A stretch of DNA of 64,000 bases from Thermoplasmata archaeon (lineage in GTDB: Archaea; Thermoplasmatota; Thermoplasmata; Sysuiplasmatales; Sysuiplasmataceae). The stretch's first letter is position 1. Each line of letters begins with the position of its first letter. Below, piece after piece: positions 12,430 through 48,343 of this stretch. Position numbers and translations under genes: made by a program. Where the stretch lies: NCBI GenBank assembly GCA_021817225.1, contig JAKAVR010000002.1, positions 17,240 through 81,239 on the forward strand, given 5' to 3'. The notes below the pieces were generated by a model. It had not been told where the DNA came from and searched no databases. It worked only from the letters and a program-made list of their open reading frames with translations.

Positions 12430-13923
12430 TTGTCATTCCGGGATGCACTTCAAATGAATGACTCTGCGAATTTCGCGGGCTATCAGGCTGACGACATTGA
12501 ATTCCTCGGCATTGTGTTCGGTCCTGTTGGAAGCTACGAGTTCAAGTTTGCTGTCACTGCTTCGGTAGAGAGGAACGAATATGTGCAGGTTCATCACGGC
12601 GCGTATGGTTGGCTCCTTGGCAGGGTGGATGAGGTGAGGCTCGAGACTGATCTGACGAGTGAAGGGGCCAAAAAAGTGGCAATGGGGGAGAGCGTGGCCT
12701 TCAGCGAAGAGGAGATTGCCCAGGCGACCATCGTTGGATACGCCGATGGCAAAGGAGGAATAGCGTCGCCTAAGCAACCTGTTGCTGCAGGAACCCGGGT
12801 ATACAGAGCGACAGACGAGACAATAGCCTCTGTACTTGGTCTTTCAAGCGAAGCGAACGGTGCGCGCATAGGAACGCTGCACGGAAGGGCACTCCCGGTG
12901 CAGATGGACATTGAGGCAATGGTGCAGAAACACATTTCCATAGTTGCAAAGACAGGGGGAGGGAAAAGCTACCTGGCCGGCGTTCTGATGGAGGAAATGC
13001 TTAAGCATTCGGTTACAACACTTGTACTCGACCCACACGGCGAATACGGCTCACTAAGGGATGCGGAGGGAAACGGTGGCCAGAAAAGTGCGTTTGCATC
13101 TGAAGTGATAGAATTTGCAACCGATGTGGAAGTCAATGCCGCAGCCCAGCCATTGCGCTTCACATGCTCAAACTTCAGTGCGTCGGAGCTTCTTTCACTG
13201 ACGGGCATGGCTGAAAACAGGGGGGCGATTTCGGCCCTGACTGTCTGTCTTGAGAGGGTGAAGGAGAAGGGGCAGGATTATGTTATACAGGACATAATAA
13301 CTGAAATGGAGGAAGGCGACAACCCGCTGCTGTCTCAGCTGAGGAAGGAGCTTGGCGTGATTTCTGCAATGAATATTTTTTCCGAACACGGGACGAGAAC
13401 GGATCAGATTGCCAACCCCGGAAAAACAACGATAATAAACTTCAAGGGAGCGACCCCGGAAGTGCAGGGACTGTTCGCAAGAAGGCTTCTTACTGCCCTG
13501 TTTGAGCAGAGGAAGAGGGGAAAGATCCCGCCCCTCCTGGTCGTGCTCGAGGAGGCACACAACTTCTGTCCACAGCAGGGGAAGACAGAGGCGAGCAGGA
13601 TAATAAGAACAATAGCCGCGGAGGGAAGGAAGTTCGGATTGTGGATCATGGTGATTACACAAAGGGCTGCGAAGGTGGACAAGAATGTGCTCAGTCAATG
13701 CAATACGCAGTTCATCCTGAAGCTCACAAACGTCAACGACATCAAAGCTGTGGCATCCTCGGTGGAGGGGATGACAGCAGAGATGCTCCAGGAAATACCC
13801 AGGCTGCAGACAGGCGTTGCAATAGCAATCGGCGGCGGTCTTCCCGTTCCGCTGCTGGTGGATGTGAGGAAGAGGCTGACACGCCACGGGGGCGAAAGCG
13901 TCGGCACTTTATGGAGGAAGTAA
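12430..13923 (+). CDS. HerA-like (DUF87) ATPase/helicase paralog
   Basis: HAS-barrel-like N-terminus. Walker A IVAKTGGGKSY, the HerA hallmark LVLDPHGEY, Walker B LLVVLEEAHNF, and ITQRAAKV. No NurA, Mre11 or Rad50 nearby. Confidence 0.65.
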   Translation: MSFRDALQMNDSANFAGYQADDIEFLGIVFGPVGSYEFKFAVTASVERNEYVQVHHGAYGWLLGRVDEVRLETDLTSEGAKKVAMGESVAFSEEEIAQATIVGYADGKGGIASPKQPVAAGTRVYRATDETIASVLGLSSEANGARIGTLHGRALPVQMDIEAMVQKHISIVAKTGGGKSYLAGVLMEEMLKHSVTTLVLDPHGEYGSLRDAEGNGGQKSAFASEVIEFATDVEVNAAAQPLRFTCSNFSASELLSLTGMAENRGAISALTVCLERVKEKGQDYVIQDIITEMEEGDNPLLSQLRKELGVISAMNIFSEHGTRTDQIANPGKTTIINFKGATPEVQGLFARRLLTALFEQRKRGKIPPLLVVLEEAHNFCPQQGKTEASRIIRTIAAEGRKFGLWIMVITQRAAKVDKNVLSQCNTQFILKLTNVNDIKAVASSVEGMTAEMLQEIPRLQTGVAIAIGGGLPVPLLVDVRKRLTRHGGESVGTLWRK

Positions 13924-39169: not shown

Positions 39170-39514
39170 ATGCAACCTTTTGAAGCAATGCAGTTGATGA
39201 CGGACGAATATGCCGTAAAAATACTAGTTGGGACAATGAGGAAGCCGAGGACAGCAATAGACCTCTCAGAGCTTTTTGGAATACCAATAGCTGCCTGTTA
39301 CAGGAAGATTCGACTTCTCGAGGAAATGGGCCTGATAACTTGCATAGAGAGAAAGCTTACCCGCGAAGGGAAAAGAATAAGCGTCTACCAGTCGCAGCTC
39401 AAGAATGCCTACATGTCTTTTGAAGACGGAAGGATGAGGGTTCGATTCGAGCTTGCGAATGGAGTTGTCCAGGACTCGGGCGACCAGAGTCTTATCACGA
39501 CTATCACGGTCTAG
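39170..39514 (+). CDS. ArsR-type winged-helix transcriptional regulator
   Basis: RTAIDLSELFGIPIAACYRKIRLLEEMGLI is a classic ArsR/SmtB helix-turn-helix. Confidence 0.5.
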   Translation: MQPFEAMQLMTDEYAVKILVGTMRKPRTAIDLSELFGIPIAACYRKIRLLEEMGLITCIERKLTREGKRISVYQSQLKNAYMSFEDGRMRVRFELANGVVQDSGDQSLITTITV

Positions 39515-42150: not shown

Positions 42151-42888
42151 TCAGAGAGCTTTTGCCTTGAGTTCCGACTGAATCTGCTTCAGCTCGTATG
42201 AACTGCTCGATTTGTTCACGTAATCGGCAATCGCGTTCCGGATGAGATAAGGATGCTTGACGCCGTAAAAGCACTCGCTTGGAAGAGCCCTCGGAACATC
42301 TGTTCCCTTGACCGATACGGATCCGCTCATCTTCTCCTGCCCCGAGACATTCATGCCTGTCCCCAGGCCCGCGGCAGTTATTGGCACCACATTGCCGAAT
42401 GAGAAAATTCGGCCCAGCACACTTACATGGACATCGACATCTACTATGTTTTCGTATCTCATATAGAGTTCATTGTAGGTCAGGAACTTTCTGATCATGG
42501 CTATCCTGAGGTTCGTGATATAATAACGGTAGGACCTCCTGTAGAATTCGGCGATGAGGAATGCGAGAATCCCGGCCCCGGCTGTAACGGATGCGAGAAA
42601 CACCACACTATTAGCCCTGAAAAAAGGAACGGATCGGAGCGCAAAGGATGACAGCACCACAAGGACAACTATGAAGCAAAAAGTGACCCAGTGCCTGTGC
42701 CTTCTCGTGAGGTATAACGAGAATATGCCCAGGAGGAAAGTCACTATGATCCAGAAGAACACTGCGCTGTTATTACTTGTTGAACCGAACAGAAATGTGA
42801 GGTACTGCGACGCGTAATTGATATCATGCTGGAGGTGTGACTGCCAGTACGCTGTCCCCACAAATGCGTAGTATATCGCCCCCCACAA
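42151..42888 (-). CDS. membrane protein with a bacterial-type PH domain (bPH_2, YdbT/DUF304-like)
   Basis: N-terminal TM helices, then YYITNLRIAMIRKFLTYNELYMRYENIVDVDVHVSVLGRIFSFGNV, which is bPH_2-like. It has its own TATATAAG-containing upstream region (about 43005-43020). Confidence 0.5.
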   Translation of the reverse strand: MWGAIYYAFVGTAYWQSHLQHDINYASQYLTFLFGSTSNNSAVFFWIIVTFLLGIFSLYLTRRHRHWVTFCFIVVLVVLSSFALRSVPFFRANSVVFLASVTAGAGILAFLIAEFYRRSYRYYITNLRIAMIRKFLTYNELYMRYENIVDVDVHVSVLGRIFSFGNVVPITAAGLGTGMNVSGQEKMSGSVSVKGTDVPRALPSECFYGVKHPYLIRNAIADYVNKSSSSYELKQIQSELKAKAL

Positions 42889-43144: not shown

Positions 43145-43600
43145 TCAGGAGCCAAGCACAATTGATAACCTTCTCAGCTTGCTCCGTATGTTTCTATCTA
43201 GTCTGACGAATTGCCAGCGCATTAGCACCCTGCCATATCTAGATACGAAGCTGACGCTGCATGTTCTCATCAATCTGTCATAAGTGCGAGTCTCGATTCT
43301 GAGTCCTGAAACATAATCGAGGCTGATGCTCTTTCCCCTGAGCAGCACGCTGCTCGTGACGCGACTGTCGGAAACTGCATATTTCGTGCCCAACCACACA
43401 GCCACCGGAAACAAGAACACAACGCAGCAGACCATCCATTCGGCAGGGCGCAGCAGGGATGGGAATGCAAGTCCGAATTCAGACACAACGCTGTTTACCA
43501 TCATAAACTGGAAACCAAAGAGAAGGGATAGAAGCAGCCCTGCAATCGCATAGGGACTCAAACATGGTCGTGCATGAATGTCATGGGCAACCTTCATCAC
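43145..43600 (-). CDS. small membrane protein with a bPH_2 domain (YdbS-like); last gene of the T4SS-like operon
   Basis: Two N-terminal TM helices, then YAVSDSRVTSSVLLRGKSISLDYVSGLRIETRTYDRLMRTCSVSF. Its start overlaps the stop of the upstream gene by 4 nt. Confidence 0.5.
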   Translation of the reverse strand: MMKVAHDIHARPCLSPYAIAGLLLSLLFGFQFMMVNSVVSEFGLAFPSLLRPAEWMVCCVVFLFPVAVWLGTKYAVSDSRVTSSVLLRGKSISLDYVSGLRIETRTYDRLMRTCSVSFVSRYGRVLMRWQFVRLDRNIRSKLRRLSIVLGS

Positions 43601-44289
43601 TTCTTCCCTCCTTCTCCCGCACAGTCTGCAGGCATATCCCGAATCAGTGTCCTCTCCTTTGCAAGAAGACCGGCAAGCATGCCCGCATTGAAGGAGAGGT
43701 CAACGAGAGATTTCATCGAATTTTCGACCGAAAAATCCTCAAGCGCTTTCCCGCAATCGCGCTCAATTCCCCCTTCGGTGTAATGCTTTGAGTCATCCAG
43801 CACAGAGCCGAGATGTATCGAGACCATATCCGCCCCCGGAATGAAATTCATTGAATCCATTTTTCCAAGCAGCCTCTCCGCTTCGTTCCTGTGCCTGTTG
43901 TACTCATCGGAAATTTCAGTCGTTCCGGAGTAATTGCCCCTGTCGAAGGAAACAGGAAGGGATAGCTGCACATTGCCGATCGCAGTAACGGAGGAGAAAG
44001 CCAATTGGCTCTTCTGCAGCGTGTCCAATTCCCCCTTGAGCCAACCGGACCAGAATGCGATCTCGATGAGCGTTGATGCTTGATCGTCGGCTGAGATGCC
44101 TGCGTTAGGCGGCGAATTATCCACAAGCCTGTGTCTTATCCTGTCGGCCCACCACATGTTGGAACCGTCACTGTCGCTCAGAATTGCCTCCGCTTCACTG
44201 ACCTCTGATTCCACCTCCTTCAGCCAGGTGGACAGCATTGATCCGAAGAAACTCATTCTCTTGCTGCAGTCAACTGGCAGCCGCTTCAT
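43597..44289 (-). CDS. hypothetical soluble protein (operon member)
   Basis: About 230 aa from the M at 44289 (an ATGA overlap with the VirB4-like stop). No recognisable motif and no TM helix. Confidence 0.4.
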   Translation of the reverse strand: MKRLPVDCSKRMSFFGSMLSTWLKEVESEVSEAEAILSDSDGSNMWWADRIRHRLVDNSPPNAGISADDQASTLIEIAFWSGWLKGELDTLQKSQLAFSSVTAIGNVQLSLPVSFDRGNYSGTTEISDEYNRHRNEAERLLGKMDSMNFIPGADMVSIHLGSVLDDSKHYTEGGIERDCGKALEDFSVENSMKSLVDLSFNAGMLAGLLAKERTLIRDMPADCAGEGGKK

Positions 44290-45989
44290 GCATGCATCGC
44301 CTCCCCGATTAGGCAGACGGCTTCGTCCAACTTCGAAATGGCCATGATACTCATCAGGGCTGAGGGCGTCACCGGTAGCTTTGGTTCGGAGTTGCACACT
44401 TCCCTTTCCTCATCACTGCAGTGAACAATGAGGGGTACCTTCATGCCGGAAGTGACGAGGATGCACTTTCCGACGCCTTCTGTCCTCGGGTGTGAGGAGG
44501 CAATAAACTCCAAATCGCCGTCATTAAGCTCAAAGAACGATCGCATTCTCATGCTCAGTTTTTCATGGCGGAAGACAAAGAAATGGCTGCAGTTGTTCAG
44601 CAGACCGCCGTCCGGGTCCTGACTCAGAAAATCATCGAAATTCTGCGAAGCAAGCAGGACGCTCAACCCATAATGGCGTGAATGCCTCATTAGCTCGGAA
44701 ACGAAGGCGGATGATGCGGGACTCCTTGAAACTGTCCAGGCCTCGTCGAGAACGAGAGTCTTCCTGCCATGGGCCCTTCTGCACAACTCGAATACAAGGC
44801 CAGAAACGAGGCAGATGACATCTTCAAGCATTCCCTTGCTGACAGAACCCATGTCAAAGACAATATGGCCGCCGTTTCCGGAAAGAACGCATTTTCCTTC
44901 AAGCAGGAAGGACATCCTGGAAATGTCCGCCATGTTGCCCCCAAATGAGAGCTCTGCATCATGCAGGTGAGGCAGCGCTTCGAAGAATGAAGATAGGTAC
45001 TGTTCAGAATTGTCGGTCGCATACTTAGTGAGCAGTTGCCTGAATACGACTCCTTCCCTTTCAGTCAGCTTGAAAATACTCTGGACAAAGCGAGTCAGGT
45101 AATGGGCGAATGTAATTGCTTCTGACATTTTGAGCGAGCCGAGGCCAAGACCCTCATGAAAGACGTTGACTACCTCAGCACCCGACTGGAGGCCAACAGC
45201 AAAAAACTCACCCAGGGGATCGATTACGAATATTCTGTTTGACGCGAAGCCTGACTCCCTCAGCATTAACAGCTTCATGAAAAAACTCTTGCCGCTTCCG
45301 CTCTTGCCGATTACGACCGAATTGTAGTTCGGGGTCGAAAAACGATCATGGACAACCGGAGTGCCATCTATTGCATTACAGCCAACGGGAACGCCCATCT
45401 CCTGCAACAAGGGGGACTGGGTGAAAGGAACCAGGGCGGGAAGGGATGAAGTGCTCACAATCGGGCATCTGTCGAAGGAGGGAACAGTTCCTGGAGAAAA
45501 ATCGGCCAATACCTTGAACTGCAGATACTTCAGCCTTGAGTAACGGACGGAAAAGGCCTTCAGCTCGCTCGTAAGCAATTCCGTCCGTTCCCTTAACTCC
45601 GAGCCTGTCTCGGCAACAACCGCAAAAAGAAGAGATGCATAGAAGAGCCTCGTCCTGTCTGATCGCAGCTCAGAAAGGAGCTGCCTCCCGAGTTCAAGCC
45701 TCGTCTCCTGGTAATCTGCCGTTCTGCCTGCGTTCACCCTGTCGAGAATCTCAGCCGACAGGTTGAGCGTGGACCTTTCTACCATTAAAATGGATCTCTC
45801 TTTTGAAATCTGGAAAAGGGACACTGATGCACCCAGGAAAGGAAGACGCAGGAGCATATCCGACAGCCAGTCTGAGGGAAGATTGAACGGAAATCCTGTC
45901 ACAAAGATGAAGGTGATCCGCCTCTTTCCGATATCCGCCCTTTCAATCCCGTTTGCGCTCCGGTGACGATTGTGGAACACAAGATTCAC
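44286..45989 (-). CDS. VirB4/TrbE/CedB-like conjugation-type ATPase
   Basis: Walker A VVIGKSGSGKSFFMKLL, the motif FVIDPLGEF, and Walker B TLVLDEAWTV (the DEAW hallmark of VirB4/AAA_10), then LLASQNFDDF. About 250 aa of N-terminal non-ATPase domain; 567 aa, as in archaeal CedB. Confidence 0.65.
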   Translation of the reverse strand: MNLVFHNRHRSANGIERADIGKRRITFIFVTGFPFNLPSDWLSDMLLRLPFLGASVSLFQISKERSILMVERSTLNLSAEILDRVNAGRTADYQETRLELGRQLLSELRSDRTRLFYASLLFAVVAETGSELRERTELLTSELKAFSVRYSRLKYLQFKVLADFSPGTVPSFDRCPIVSTSSLPALVPFTQSPLLQEMGVPVGCNAIDGTPVVHDRFSTPNYNSVVIGKSGSGKSFFMKLLMLRESGFASNRIFVIDPLGEFFAVGLQSGAEVVNVFHEGLGLGSLKMSEAITFAHYLTRFVQSIFKLTEREGVVFRQLLTKYATDNSEQYLSSFFEALPHLHDAELSFGGNMADISRMSFLLEGKCVLSGNGGHIVFDMGSVSKGMLEDVICLVSGLVFELCRRAHGRKTLVLDEAWTVSRSPASSAFVSELMRHSRHYGLSVLLASQNFDDFLSQDPDGGLLNNCSHFFVFRHEKLSMRMRSFFELNDGDLEFIASSHPRTEGVGKCILVTSGMKVPLIVHCSDEEREVCNSEPKLPVTPSALMSIMAISKLDEAVCLIGEAMHA

Positions 45990-46636
45990 TGCATCACCCT
46001 CTGTAGAAGCATTGAGTCCACGAGCGGATGGACAGACGACGGGTCACACAATGGAGTGGTGTCTGATGCCGTACCTCCGATGAATGCTGGCGGTGCCTGG
46101 CCCTCCCGCGTCGAGAGATAGAATGAGCGAAGGCCGGCAGTTTCGCTTCCGGAAAGCTGCACATTCATATCGCCTGGGACGCCGTCATCAATTCCCGGGA
46201 TTGCCAGGAAGCGGATGCACCCCCGTGCGGACAAACAGAAGGATAGGAACGAATCAAGAAAAGTTTCCTTTTCCGCCTTCAGGGCGCATGCATAGTTGAC
46301 ATTGTCAAGCCTATACACAGACATGGTCAAGTCCACGGACCGTATTGACCTGCCAATCTCGTGCTTCGGGTTCCTTCCGACAAGCCTGTATTCAAGGAAA
46401 GCACTGAACAATTCGAAAGGGTGTTCGCCCCTCCGTTCGTGGATTACAAGGACCAAGGAAGCAGCCTGGAGAATAGGGGCAACGATGCAGGCGGCGATAT
46501 GAGATATCTCGTAGACAAGAAAGTCCAGCGGCAGGCAGGCTGTGAGCGTAAGGCACTCGACCGCTGTGAACGGGCCAAGAACGGCTGGAGAGTATGAGGT
46601 GGCCGCAGGAAAGCTGCACTCAGCTTGCATCTTCAT
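45986..46636 (-). CDS. hypothetical N-terminally membrane-anchored protein (VirB3/VirB8-position gene)
   Basis: 216 aa with one or two N-terminal hydrophobic helices, then a soluble domain. It overlaps the VirB4-like start by 4 nt. Confidence 0.35.
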   Translation of the reverse strand: MKMQAECSFPAATSYSPAVLGPFTAVECLTLTACLPLDFLVYEISHIAACIVAPILQAASLVLVIHERRGEHPFELFSAFLEYRLVGRNPKHEIGRSIRSVDLTMSVYRLDNVNYACALKAEKETFLDSFLSFCLSARGCIRFLAIPGIDDGVPGDMNVQLSGSETAGLRSFYLSTREGQAPPAFIGGTASDTTPLCDPSSVHPLVDSMLLQRVMQ

Positions 46637-47756
46637 TCACCCCCACGTATATCTTATGATGGCGCGATTTCGGGGCAGAGCGAAGTAATGCAGGATGTTT
46701 TGGAAAAACAGTCGCAGATGCTGGTGCAATCCTACCGCTTCCATGCCTTCCTGCCCTTGCTGTTGTTCCGAGAAATTTCCCAGCTACAGCTCTTCCGTGA
46801 GAGGTCCCTGTATTGAAGCTCCTCACCGTCTTATGCATGGATGGTCTCATGGCACCGTGCAGGCTGCCTCCCCTTGCATTTGTATGACCGGCCGGTCTCT
46901 GAGACGTCCGGAAGGGTGAGACGAGGAAACCGGCGGTGTAGGAGGCCAGACCGGCAGATGCGAAGGAGGCAGTCGTCAGCACAGTGGCTATAGTCGGCAT
47001 GCCGAAATACTGCATTATCCTGCTTCCTGCAGGAGATATTATGAAGGGCACGAAAAGAGGCAGGAGAAAAGTGCCGGCAATTATCAAAGGAGGCACCTGG
47101 AGTGAACTGAATGTTGAGTATGAAGTGACTATCCCGATCCTCAGGCCGACAGCCATGAAGAAGGGAAGGAATGCCATTTCTGCGAACAATCCCAATATTC
47201 GCCTTGAGAAGGGCCTGGTTGCACTGATTGACTCGCAAAGAAGAGCCAGCGGAAGCAATGCGGCCGTGAAGAAGACAAGAAGAGTCCTGAGAATCAGGAC
47301 CAGGTAAAGCAGCAGTGACGCTATCCCTATCAGAGCGATGGCACCAACGCTGTATCCGCCGAGGCCGGATGCCACCATGTTTGAGTAGCCGGATAGCTGA
47401 TTGTACGGAAGAACGAATGACGTCAGTGCGTCGTTGACATCCAGTGTCAGCTGAGCAAAATAGAGTGAAAAGGGCATTAGCACGACGGCGACAAGCAATC
47501 TTGAGAGCTGTCTGGAAGTCCCTGATCTGCCGTGAATAGGGACGCCGGTGAAAAGCGAGTAAGCAATAAGGGCTATCGCGATTGAGACAAGAGACTCCGA
47601 AATAAAGAGCACTGCCTCCCAGGCGCTGTAGGTCCCATTTGAAAAGAGTCCAGTGCTTACTGTCATTGCAGGAACTATGGCCTTCAGAATCGCAAGTATG
47701 CCGTTCTGGAAAAGGCCGTCAAAGGCCTGTGTAATCATTGAATCTATGCCTGACAT
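46620..47756 (-). CDS. polytopic membrane protein, VirB6/TrbL/CedA-like
   Basis: 378 aa with about 6-7 TM helices. A roughly 100-aa C-terminal low-complexity basic tail (RPAGHTNARGG...RHHK) resembles TrbL/VirB6 proteins. Its position between the pilin and VirB4 genes fits. Confidence 0.45.
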   Translation of the reverse strand: MSGIDSMITQAFDGLFQNGILAILKAIVPAMTVSTGLFSNGTYSAWEAVLFISESLVSIAIALIAYSLFTGVPIHGRSGTSRQLSRLLVAVVLMPFSLYFAQLTLDVNDALTSFVLPYNQLSGYSNMVASGLGGYSVGAIALIGIASLLLYLVLILRTLLVFFTAALLPLALLCESISATRPFSRRILGLFAEMAFLPFFMAVGLRIGIVTSYSTFSSLQVPPLIIAGTFLLPLFVPFIISPAGSRIMQYFGMPTIATVLTTASFASAGLASYTAGFLVSPFRTSQRPAGHTNARGGSLHGAMRPSMHKTVRSFNTGTSHGRAVAGKFLGTTARAGRHGSGRIAPASATVFPKHPALLRSAPKSRHHKIYVGVNEDAS

Positions 47757-47765
47757 GATAACAAC

Positions 47766-47870
47766 TCACGGGACAAGCGATTCTTCCACGAAGACTGCAA
47801 TTCTGTAGAGCACCAGCGCAAGGAGACTGCCAACGGCAACAACGAAAACAATGAGTGCTTTGCTTTCCAT
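47766..47870 (-). CDS. 34-aa single-TM peptide (not in the ORF track)
   Basis: Hand translation gives MESKALIVFVVAVGSLLALVLYRIAVFVEESLVP. It lies 2 nt after the pilin gene's stop and 9 nt before the VirB6-like start. Confidence 0.3.
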   Translation of the reverse strand: MESKALIVFVVAVGSLLALVLYRIAVFVEESLVP

Positions 47871-47872
47871 CC

Positions 47873-48223
47873 CTACACCACCAGAGACTGAGCGAGTTGC
47901 ACAAGAAACGAGGAGATGAAGAGCAGGAATATTCCGAATGTGACATCCATGAAGTACTTCCTAGCCTTCGATCTTGTTTCAGGATTTCCTGTGCTTGTCA
48001 TCCACATGTACGCGGTGACAATGTATCCTATCGCCGCAACTATAGTGCCCAGAGCCACCAGGAGATTCCTAACGTTCGTGAGTGTATTTGTGAGTTCCTG
48101 CTGCGGTGTGGCCGCTGCCGCCACGACTCCCGAAGTTGCCACAAGCGTCGCCATCAGCACAACAGGAAGACAGTATCCTGCACAAGCCCACTTTCCAAAG
48201 TGCGATTTGTTTCTTTCATTCAT
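47873..48223 (-). CDS. VirB2/TrbC-like conjugative pilin precursor (CedA1/TedC-like)
   Basis: 116 aa. Sec-type signal peptide with an AAA|TPQQ SPase I site. The roughly 78-aa mature part has two hydrophobic helices separated by a short basic loop (TSTGNPETRSKARKY). First gene of the operon. Confidence 0.45.
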   Translation of the reverse strand: MNERNKSHFGKWACAGYCLPVVLMATLVATSGVVAAAATPQQELTNTLTNVRNLLVALGTIVAAIGYIVTAYMWMTSTGNPETRSKARKYFMDVTFGIFLLFISSFLVQLAQSLVV

Positions 48224-48343
48224 CTGCTCACCATCCCCGCCACAAACCAGAAAATCTGACCTGTGCCGGAACGATTATTGGACCTGCTGTTCTAATTAAA
48301 AAGCCTGACTGATACATGTAACAGGTTAACAACTTTTTTCGGC

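Follow-up and report, generated by a model that had tools for sequence, protein, structure and literature searches.

Two domesticated type IV secretion systems (T4SSs) have been characterised in archaea, Ced and Ted, each of which combines a VirB2-like pilin with a VirB6-like channel and a VirB4-like ATPase (PMC9905601). The pilins CedA1 and TedC form pili, and Ced, the only archaeal domesticated T4SS whose function has been studied, imports DNA; the paper describing both systems makes no mention of Thermoplasmata or Euryarchaeota (PMC9905601). The analysis presented here concerns a 64,000-nt stretch of contig JAKAVR010000002.1 (hereafter the window), derived from a Thermoplasmata archaeon of the Sysuiplasmatales lineage from an acid-mine setting. 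An eight-gene block on its minus strand opens with a gene for a 116-aa protein (positions 47873..48223), and the best explanation overall (probability about 0.6) is that this protein is a VirB2/TrbC-type pilin of a domesticated minimal T4SS, with exchange or import of DNA as its likeliest role. A literature search revealed no description of such a system in Sysuiplasmatales or Thermoplasmatota, the sole trace being a list of arCOGs from Cuniculiplasma (PMC5155288). A 2025 study of Thermoplasmatales surface filaments makes no mention of conjugative-type pili.

Ted (Thermoproteales; Pyrobaculum calidifontis, 8DFT) resembles the window operon in being chromosomal and relaxase-less and in having a two-helix pilin (PMC9905601). 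As in the window, TedC carries a leader cleavable by signal peptidase I, the pilin gene is followed by a gene for a VirB6-like protein with approximately seven transmembrane (TM) segments, and a VirB4-like ATPase is encoded within the locus (PMC9905601). However, TedC shows no significant similarity to the window pilin, and the hosts belong to Thermoproteota and Thermoplasmatota, respectively. Compared with Ted, the window operon also contains additional genes, encoding a 34-aa micro-ORF product, proteins of 214 aa and 230 aa, and bPH-domain membrane proteins.

Ced (Sulfolobales and Aeropyrum; 8DFU; PMC9905601) is, like the window operon, a minimal chromosomal VirB2/VirB6/VirB4-like set serving the cell and not a mobile element. 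Two differences were noted: (i) CedA1 is unprocessed (PMC9905601), whereas the window pilin has a conserved leader that is predicted to be cleavable, and (ii) the CedB model (NF041017) gives the window ATPase a score of only 49.4 bits (E 3e-13) against a cut-off of 700. Unlike both CedA1 and TedC, the window pilin is recognisable from its sequence (Pfam TrbC and T4SS_pilin). The N-terminus of CedA resembles CedA1 (PMC9905601); a relation of this kind between the window pilin and the VirB6-like protein was considered and rejected (hhalign probability <1%). The window system is analogous to Ced and Ted but belongs to neither.

The bacterial VirB2/TrbC pilins (A. tumefaciens T-pilus, TrbC of RP4; PF04956) share with the window protein membership of the same hidden Markov model, a long Sec leader carrying an A-x-A site, a pair of hydrophobic helices joined by a basic turn (predicted here to be cytoplasmic), and linkage to VirB6 and VirB4 homologues. 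VirB2-type pilins have mature subunits of about 70–80 aa and polymerise into hollow helical pili, usually with stoichiometric lipid, and some of them are cyclised. The window system differs from the bacterial ones in that its host is an archaeon, which has ether lipids and only one membrane, and in that homologues of VirB1, VirB5 and VirB7–VirB11, a coupling protein and a relaxase are all absent from the vicinity of the locus.

The features of the pilin gene are the following:

48293..48302, minus strand: A/T-rich TATA-box-like element TTTTTAATTA, approximately 70–80 nt 5′ of the pilin start codon (from the sequence).
48228..48232, minus strand: Shine-Dalgarno-like motif GGTGA, 4 nt 5′ of the pilin ATG (from the sequence).
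47873..48223, minus strand: pilin precursor gene, 116 aa, very probably of the VirB2/TrbC/T4SS_pilin family (from the list of open reading frames (ORFs), Pfam and 21 homologues).
48116..48223, minus strand: predicted leader, residues 1–36, with charged n-region MNERNKSHFGKW, hydrophobic h-region and a c-region ending in SGVVAA (from conservation).
47876..48115, minus strand: predicted mature pilin, residues 37–116, 80 aa (from AlphaFold2, hydropathy, Pfam and the ratio of nonsynonymous to synonymous substitutions, dN/dS).

The ORF at 47873..48223 is a real gene and not a chance ORF, since it has homologues, a low dN/dS ratio and a syntenic position in seven other genomes. Among 5.8 billion proteins searched, 21 homologues with lengths of 95–135 aa were found, all of which (21/21) carry both the TrbC and the T4SS_pilin domain in precomputed Pfam annotation. 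Comparison with three diverged relatives gave, for the mature part, proportions of nonsynonymous (pN) and synonymous (pS) differences of 0.03–0.12 and approximately 0.7, respectively, and a dN/dS of 0.01–0.04. The ATG at 48223 is the first start codon past an in-frame TAA (48275–48277), and the GGTGA motif upstream of it is presumably complementary to the 3′ end of archaeal 16S rRNA. The TATA-box-like element is a candidate archaeal promoter of the pilin operon. The gene call itself is not new, since close homologues have already been labelled by the NCBI ("pilin", one protein) and JGI ("VirB2 component (pilin)", two proteins) pipelines. The ORF coordinates and the protein sequence quoted in the original prediction proved exact, and the pilin is, as it had stated, the first ORF of an operon; VirB6-like and VirB4-like genes follow downstream on the same strand. 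Two plus-strand ORFs run antisense to the pilin gene (47855..48259, 134 aa, and 47916..48299, 127 aa); they have no support of these kinds and are most probably shadow ORFs that mirror the conserved frame on the minus strand.

Within the pilin, conservation is lowest in the N-terminal hydrophobic stretch. Identity of the leader to the window copy is 9–51% in 20 of the 21 homologues (typically about 20%) and reaches 97% only in the near-identical remaining one, whereas the mature part is 73–99% identical across all 21; the pN of the leader (0.32–0.51) likewise stands against the 0.03–0.12 of the mature part. The boundary between the two is marked by the pattern G32-x-A/V34-x-A36, in which G32 and A/V34 are (nearly) invariant and A36 is invariant in the 22 aligned sequences. 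A signal peptidase I site is therewith predicted between A36 and A37. The leader thus fits a cleaved Sec/signal-peptidase-I type, not class III, because it is variable, the part that follows is conserved and the boundary is a conserved A-x-A. This agrees with the signal type that had been proposed originally, as does the A-x-A cleavage of signal peptidase I type; the exact register (AAAA/TPQQ) and the resulting mature length of about 78 aa most likely do not hold. Since the conserved register sits two residues before that site, the mature pilin most likely comprises 80 aa.

Most surface filaments of archaea are of the type IV pilin kind, and the precursor does begin with a charged N-terminus followed by a hydrophobic stretch, so that a type IV pilin or an archaellin-like protein of the archaeal kind, bearing a class III signal and assembled by type IV filament machinery, had to be considered. 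Proteins with class III signals keep their hydrophobic N-terminus, and no other part of them is better conserved; here it is the least conserved part, and the alignment of the pilin and its homologues revealed no conserved class III motif ([KR][GA]/hydrophobic). The protein has a second, C-terminal TM helix, its Pfam matches are only to T4SS pilins, and the neighbouring genes are VirB6-like and VirB4-like, with no PilB-, PilC- or prepilin-peptidase-type gene nearby. This possibility is effectively refuted by the sequence.

The assignment of the protein to the VirB2/TrbC-type family is very probable. Both relevant Pfam models were matched above their cut-offs: the precursor scored 36.7 bits and the mature part 30.9 on TrbC/VirB2 (PF04956; cut-off 27.9), and the two scored 33.7 and 35.6 bits, respectively, on T4SS_pilin (PF18895; cut-off 26.6), the last value being the best score of any Pfam model for the mature part. 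The next-best matches were to conjugal pilin-like families (DUF4134, DUF6112 and the NCBIfam Mbov_0395 pilin-like family). The reversed pilin sequence gave no pilin match and none above 17 bits, only sub-threshold matches to unrelated membrane proteins; the Pfam match is therefore not due to hydrophobic composition. These matches, together with the VirB6/VirB4-like neighbours, bear out the earlier identification of a conjugative-type pilin, as opposed to a type IV pilin or archaellum subunit.

Hydropathy analysis of the precursor revealed three hydrophobic segments (approximately residues 13–36, 54–72 and 98–116). In the AlphaFold2 model (mean predicted local distance difference test score, pLDDT, 72.6; 77–85 across the mature part) helices span residues 7–37, 40–76 and 81–115, with a turn at 77–80. 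In the mature part so modelled, a polar N-terminal segment AATPQQELTNTLTNVRN leads into hydrophobic helix 1 (ending near residue 76); the turn TSTGN then gives way to helix 2, which has a basic opening (PETRSKARKY) and is hydrophobic up to residue 115. Basic residues R84, K86, R88 and K89 follow directly after the turn. In this model the two helices of the mature part form a hairpin around a basic turn, the topology that had been proposed, with hydrophobic cores at 54–72 and 98–116. The predicted basic loop was recovered in part: a basic stretch does lie between the hydrophobic helices, yet it is modelled as the start of helix 2, only residues 77–80 forming the turn.

The pilin gene is followed on the same strand by seven further genes, most of them coupled by ATGA-type overlaps. 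Two of these encode VirB6-like and VirB4-like T4SS components:

46620..47756, minus strand: VirB6/TrbL-like polytopic membrane protein, 378 aa (from Pfam matches of orthologues and TM segments).
44286..45989, minus strand: VirB4-like ATPase, 567 aa, with intact Walker A (GKSGSGKS) and Walker B (LVLDEAW) motifs (from Pfam and NCBIfam).

The VirB6-like protein has 6–7 hydrophobic segments within residues 20–241, followed by a basic, poorly conserved tail. Pfam TrbL/VirB6 was matched by 13 of its 17 orthologues (best E 1.6e-6), and a precomputed match to TrbL_3 (PF19590) exists for a gene of identical length. The tail, approximately 100 residues long, ends in HKIYVG (within 46620..46760), of which H367, I369 and Y370 are invariant in the 17 orthologues; this suggests a docking motif. 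The VirB4-like ATPase matches Pfam AAA_10 (49.7 bits, cut-off 27.5), P-loop_TraG and DUF87. Among NCBIfam models, the CD1110-family VirB4 (E 1e-30; 106.6 bits against a cut-off of 325) and the VirB4 of a Mycoplasma integrated conjugative element (ICE; E 2e-29) were matched, as were TraC, VirB4_CagE (TIGR00929; 55 bits against a cut-off of 643) and the CedB model mentioned above. The protein is a VirB4 homologue that belongs to no curated subfamily.

Monoderm systems of the mating-pair-formation class FATA (MPF-FATA; PrgH-PrgI-PrgJ type) are similar in that the CD1110-family VirB4 is the best NCBIfam match of the window ATPase. The order of a VirB6-like, a small membrane and a VirB4-like protein in the window is, we assume, that of PrgH/PrgI/PrgJ. 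VirB2-like pilins are reported to be absent from MPF-FATA (PMC12102498), whereas the window operon is headed by a pilin gene; in addition, the ATPase scores below the equivalog cut-offs, no PrgI Pfam match was obtained, and neither a coupling protein nor a relaxase is encoded in the window. These relationships bear on a possible reading in which the VirB2-like protein is a translocon subunit that works in the membrane with the VirB6/VirB4-like proteins and forms no filament, as in pilus-less monoderm T4SSs. The closest relatives of the ATPase are indeed of monoderm MPF-FATA type, namely the CD1110 family and the Mycoplasma ICE, monoderm bacteria have no conjugative pili (PMC9905601), just as MPF-FATA are reported to have no VirB2-like pilins (PMC12102498), and a Mycoplasma "pilin-like conjugal transfer protein" is among the NCBIfam matches of the pilin. 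The extreme conservation of the mature part would suit a tightly packed subunit of a membrane complex, but it fits the constraints of helical packing equally well. CedA1 and TedC, which have the same architecture, do form pili (PMC9905601), and a gene at the head of the operon, a leader predicted to be cleaved and a polar segment at the N-terminus are what filament subunits typically show. A subunit confined to the membrane is for these reasons judged decidedly unlikely, and a pilin that enters a filament is preferred.

A search proposed earlier, for the same two-helix pilin beside VirB4-like genes in related genomes, was positive for the whole block. The eight genes occur in the same order between GNAT/cysS and topA in seven Sysuiplasmatales metagenome-assembled genomes, whose cysteinyl-tRNA synthetase (CysRS) and TopA are 54–76% and 60–96% identical, respectively, to those of the window. 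The GC content of the block matches that of its flanks. Within the 64-kb window, no tRNA gene, repeat boundary, att-type boundary, relaxase, coupling protein (VirD4/TraG) or integrase was found. The other sizeable identifiable ORFs of the window are housekeeping genes, and its gene content is archaeal (thermosome, PAN, RFC, PolB, exosome, proteasome); among public contigs, the closest carry the labels Thermoplasmata archaeon and Candidatus Sysuiplasmataceae/Sysuiplasma. These data show that the block belongs to the chromosome, has been inherited vertically and keeps one fixed locus throughout a clade of order rank. From the fixed locus in diverged genomes and the lack of a relaxase, coupling protein and integrase nearby, the block is therefore read as a domesticated minimal T4SS and not a mobile element or ICE.

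The opposite possibility, in which an integrated conjugative element or plasmid would use the operon as its transfer module to export its own DNA, draws on the fact that VirB4, VirB6 and VirB2 form the core of conjugative mating-pair-formation modules. Searches of plasmids and viruses returned no relative of the pilin; the plasmid relatives of the VirB4-like ATPase are haloarchaeal, Sulfolobus and Firmicutes VirB4s that are only 22–30% identical, some of them encoded by conjugative plasmids of haloarchaea and Sulfolobus. In a distant archaeal locus (L013/L014, described below), a related pilin is paired with an ATPase carrying a TraG-D_C domain. Against this stand the identical position and gene order in seven genomes that have diverged to 54–60% in CysRS/TopA, a composition indistinguishable from that of the flanks, and the absence of mobility genes and boundaries from the window, which together make a mobile element highly improbable.

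A cluster that may represent the same kind of system in a sister order is the Cuniculiplasmataceae VirB4 cluster (arCOG05340, arCOG04034 and arCOG05369), which was listed in a single sentence, with no pilin recognised and no function proposed (PMC5155288). Compared by description only, it resembles the window block in lying on a Thermoplasmata chromosome and in consisting of a membrane protein, VirB4, a multipass protein and a further membrane protein (PMC5155288).

Conservation within the block is inverted. The mature pilin is 73–99% identical, compared with 54–76% for CysRS, 61–71% for enolase and 60–96% for TopA, while in six of the seven loci (L002–L007) the VirB4-like ATPase and the 214-aa protein are only 32–46% and 21–38% identical, respectively (the ATPase reaches 94% in the closest genome, L001). 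In bacterial T4SSs, VirB4 is usually the most conserved component and the pilins are the most variable. Two other genes of the window were also noted. A 114-aa winged-helix (HTH_20/TrmB-like) protein encoded beside topA (39170..39514, plus strand) is 98–100% identical in loci L002 and L004, an unusually strong conservation given that other housekeeping proteins of these two are only 67–83% identical. The only HerA-like gene of the window (a helicase with DUF87 and a HAS barrel; 12430..13923, plus strand) lies approximately 30 kb from the operon.

A profile search of the whole protein library identified 434 relatives of the pilin, mostly of 100–150 aa, which for the most part share the leader, the two helices and an (S/T)xGxPE...A(K/R) turn. 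The closest single-domain relatives are encoded on other archaeal contigs, beside housekeeping genes. In a scan of contigs, relatives outside Thermoplasmata were found in Patescibacteria only (Dojkabacteria and Saccharibacteria), and the strongest profile matches outside the clade were multi-repeat proteins. These tandem-repeat "polypilins" (P0022–P0026, P0029, P0033, P0038 and P0040) have 350–1775 aa and 4–15 hairpin repeats; one of them (P0023), traced to Paceibacteria, contains four repeats, each with an xGxPGK..AR turn. L013/L014 and L015 are contigs of this kind, with distant VirB2-like pilins. Locus L013/L014 (8001-15543) encodes, in this order, an adhesin-like 666-aa protein, a pilin, a 73-aa protein with 2 TM segments, a 507-aa protein, a 305-aa polytopic protein and two ATPases, and is a fuller T4SS than that of the window. 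Locus L015 (8001-8309) encodes a distant VirB2-like pilin, with no VirB4-like Pfam domain on record.

Relaxase-less, pilin-bearing T4SSs of Patescibacteria are thought to have been co-opted for other roles (PMC12102498). They share with the window system the T4SS_pilin family and the turn motif. An MPF-FATA-like VirB4, a chromosomal location and the lack of a relaxase are further common features (PMC12102498). They differ in having arrays of 2–11 variable pilin paralogues (PMC12102498) or polyproteins, as opposed to the single pilin gene of the window, and their pilins are hypervariable, while that of the window is extremely conserved and its host archaeal. The relationship with Patescibacteria, including the Paceibacteria origin of P0023, raises the possibility that the apparatus uses its VirB2-type subunit for something other than DNA exchange: contact with hosts or episymbionts (ultrasmall acid-mine-drainage archaea), effector delivery or adhesion. 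The absence of a relaxase, coupling protein and recombination gene from the operon and its immediate surroundings would be in keeping with such a role. However, Ced, the only comparable archaeal system with a studied function, imports DNA (PMC9905601), no effector-like, toxin or adhesin gene was seen in the operon, and the window bears no sign of a symbiotic lifestyle. A role unconnected with DNA is considered unlikely.

For the preferred reading, a domesticated minimal T4SS with a VirB2/TrbC-type pilin, the following mechanism is proposed. The 36-residue leader would insert the pilin through Sec, and signal peptidase I would cut after the conserved A-x-A36. This would leave a membrane-embedded hairpin of 80 residues whose two ends face outwards, and the positive-inside rule would place the basic turn (R84, K86, R88, K89) on the cytoplasmic side. 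A cytoplasmic turn with both termini outside is also the membrane topology of VirB2 and TraA. The co-transcribed machinery (the 34-aa membrane peptide, the VirB6/TrbL-like protein, the 214-aa protein, the VirB4-like ATPase and accessory proteins) would then extract the hairpin and polymerise it into a T4SS-type filament or channel, as suggested by homology with bacterial T4SSs and with Ced/Ted. Its job, again by analogy with Ced/Ted, may be contact-dependent exchange or import of DNA between cells. An extracellular filament is probably made by this system.

Several observations weigh against this explanation and were taken into account. As regards the pilin, phmmer and hmmsearch searches of the PDB with the protein and with a profile of close homologues found no solved pilin. 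The matches obtained there, to designed helical repeats and allophycocyanin, were rejected as due to the GxPE..AR turn or to composition. When a broad family profile (40 members) was searched against 177,635 PDB sequences, the top seven matches did include TedC (8dft, E 0.038) and A. tumefaciens VirB2 (8cue, E 0.19; 8exh, E 0.93), but the TedC match (17.4 bits) covers helix 1 only and the solved pilins were reached at marginal E-values; such matches are suggestive but marginal. Fold searches with the hairpin model do not single out pilins. The cleavage site was placed by the −3/−1 rule together with conservation. As regards its partners, no Pfam model, TrbL (PF04610) included, is matched at E<1 by the VirB6-like protein encoded in the window, and the VirB4-like ATPase falls far below every NCBIfam equivalog cut-off.

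Other points concern the role of the system. Many Ted loci contain ParA/VirC1-like and HerA-like genes and, in some genera, Rad50 (PMC9905601), none of which occurs in or adjoining the window operon. A relaxase or coupling protein could be encoded elsewhere in the genome; in Cuniculiplasma, a TraG/VirD4-like gene lies away from the VirB4 cluster (PMC5155288). In locus L013/L014, a DUF87-type (VirB4-like) ATPase is followed by one with the TraG-D_C domain, which is of coupling-protein type. Other roles are ascribed to the relaxase-less T4SSs of Patescibacteria (PMC12102498). DNA exchange as the function is drawn by pure analogy and is possible, at somewhat less than an even chance.

The remaining genes of the block are the following:

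47766..47870, minus strand: micro-ORF, 34 aa, single TM helix MESKALIVFVVAVGSLLALVLYRIAVFVEESLVP (from conserved position and pN<pS).
45986..46630, minus strand: membrane protein, 214 aa (216 aa from the first ATG; from an alignment of 10 orthologues).
43597..44289, minus strand: soluble protein, 230 aa (from orthologue starts and public gene calls).
43145..43597, minus strand: small membrane protein, 150 aa, with a weak bPH-like C-terminal part (from TM segments and synteny).
42151..42888, minus strand: bPH_2 membrane protein, 245 aa (from Pfam bPH_2, 30.8 bits, cut-off 22).

The micro-ORF starts 3 nt past the stop codon of the pilin gene and stops 10 nt short of the gene for the VirB6-like protein. 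Each of the seven related loci has it at this position, with an ATG start and a length of 33–36 aa, and the motif YR.AVF.E.RL.P is common to the five closest sequences (the window and L001–L004). In 9/9 pairs compared, pN was lower than pS. The micro-ORF is below the 40-aa limit of the ORF list, was called by one public gene caller (L018) and has no Pfam match; its product could be a further membrane subunit of the T4SS.

The 214-aa protein has two N-terminal TM segments after a conserved P..L.(Y/F).P.(V/I).GP(F/L) motif, and its gene overlaps the VirB4-like gene by 4 nt (ATGA). It has 214 aa in public records. No Pfam or NCBIfam match was obtained, a Pfam scan of 10 orthologues (PrgI included) was empty, and the AlphaFold2 model (four sequences) had a pLDDT of 35. 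The gene lies between those for the VirB6-like and VirB4-like proteins, in the place of VirB3/PrgI (or VirB8), and a VirB3/VirB8-like role is a positional inference. Whether the ORF is a split-off N-terminus of VirB4 was also considered and rejected: concatenation with the ATPase extended no NCBIfam alignment, and hhalign comparison with a longer N-terminus of an archaeal VirB4 was negative.

The start of the 230-aa protein corresponds to M37 of a 266-aa ORF (43597..44397), with an ATGA overlap with the stop codon of the VirB4-like gene; the protein has neither a Pfam match nor a TM segment. The 150-aa gene overlaps the stop codon of the 230-aa gene by 1 nt and is translationally coupled to that gene; its product matches bPH_2 at E 0.14 only, and the gene is syntenic in six loci. 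Compared with public calls, two listed ORFs are too long (45986..46636, 216 instead of 214 aa, and 43145..43600, 151 instead of 150 aa). The 245-aa bPH_2 gene is always located 3′ of the operon, after a gap of approximately 250 nt, and its product, 56–93% identical and syntenic in six loci, possibly belongs to the T4SS-like system.

Archaeal conjugation-type pili have been characterised only for Ced and Ted, both from hyperthermophilic Thermoproteota. A more far-reaching view, tentative and rather doubtful, is that the core genome of Sysuiplasmatales carries a third independently domesticated archaeal T4SS, the first outside Thermoproteota, whose conjugative-type pilus serves the exchange of chromosomal DNA in acid-mine communities. 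In that case purifying selection appears to act more strongly on the pilin than on the aminoacyl-tRNA synthetase genes nearby, and the system appears to derive from a stock shared with Patescibacteria and monoderm T4SSs, not from the crenarchaeal one. Needle-like connections have been reported between Thermoplasmatales and ultrasmall ARMAN archaea, and a speculative variant is that the filament mediates inter-species contacts of this kind.

If the preferred reading is correct, the chromosomal VirB2/VirB6/VirB4 operon of Sysuiplasmatales, a mesophilic-to-moderately-thermophilic order of Thermoplasmatota, would show that archaea have domesticated T4SSs for cellular purposes more widely than has been described. 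Its recognisable pilin would link the archaeal systems to the bacterial T4SS_pilin family. The inverted conservation (pilin 73–99%, ATPase 32–46% beyond the closest genome) is a testable oddity, an unusual pattern in a new lineage, and the system would be a candidate for gene exchange or cell-cell contact among archaea of acid mine drainage.

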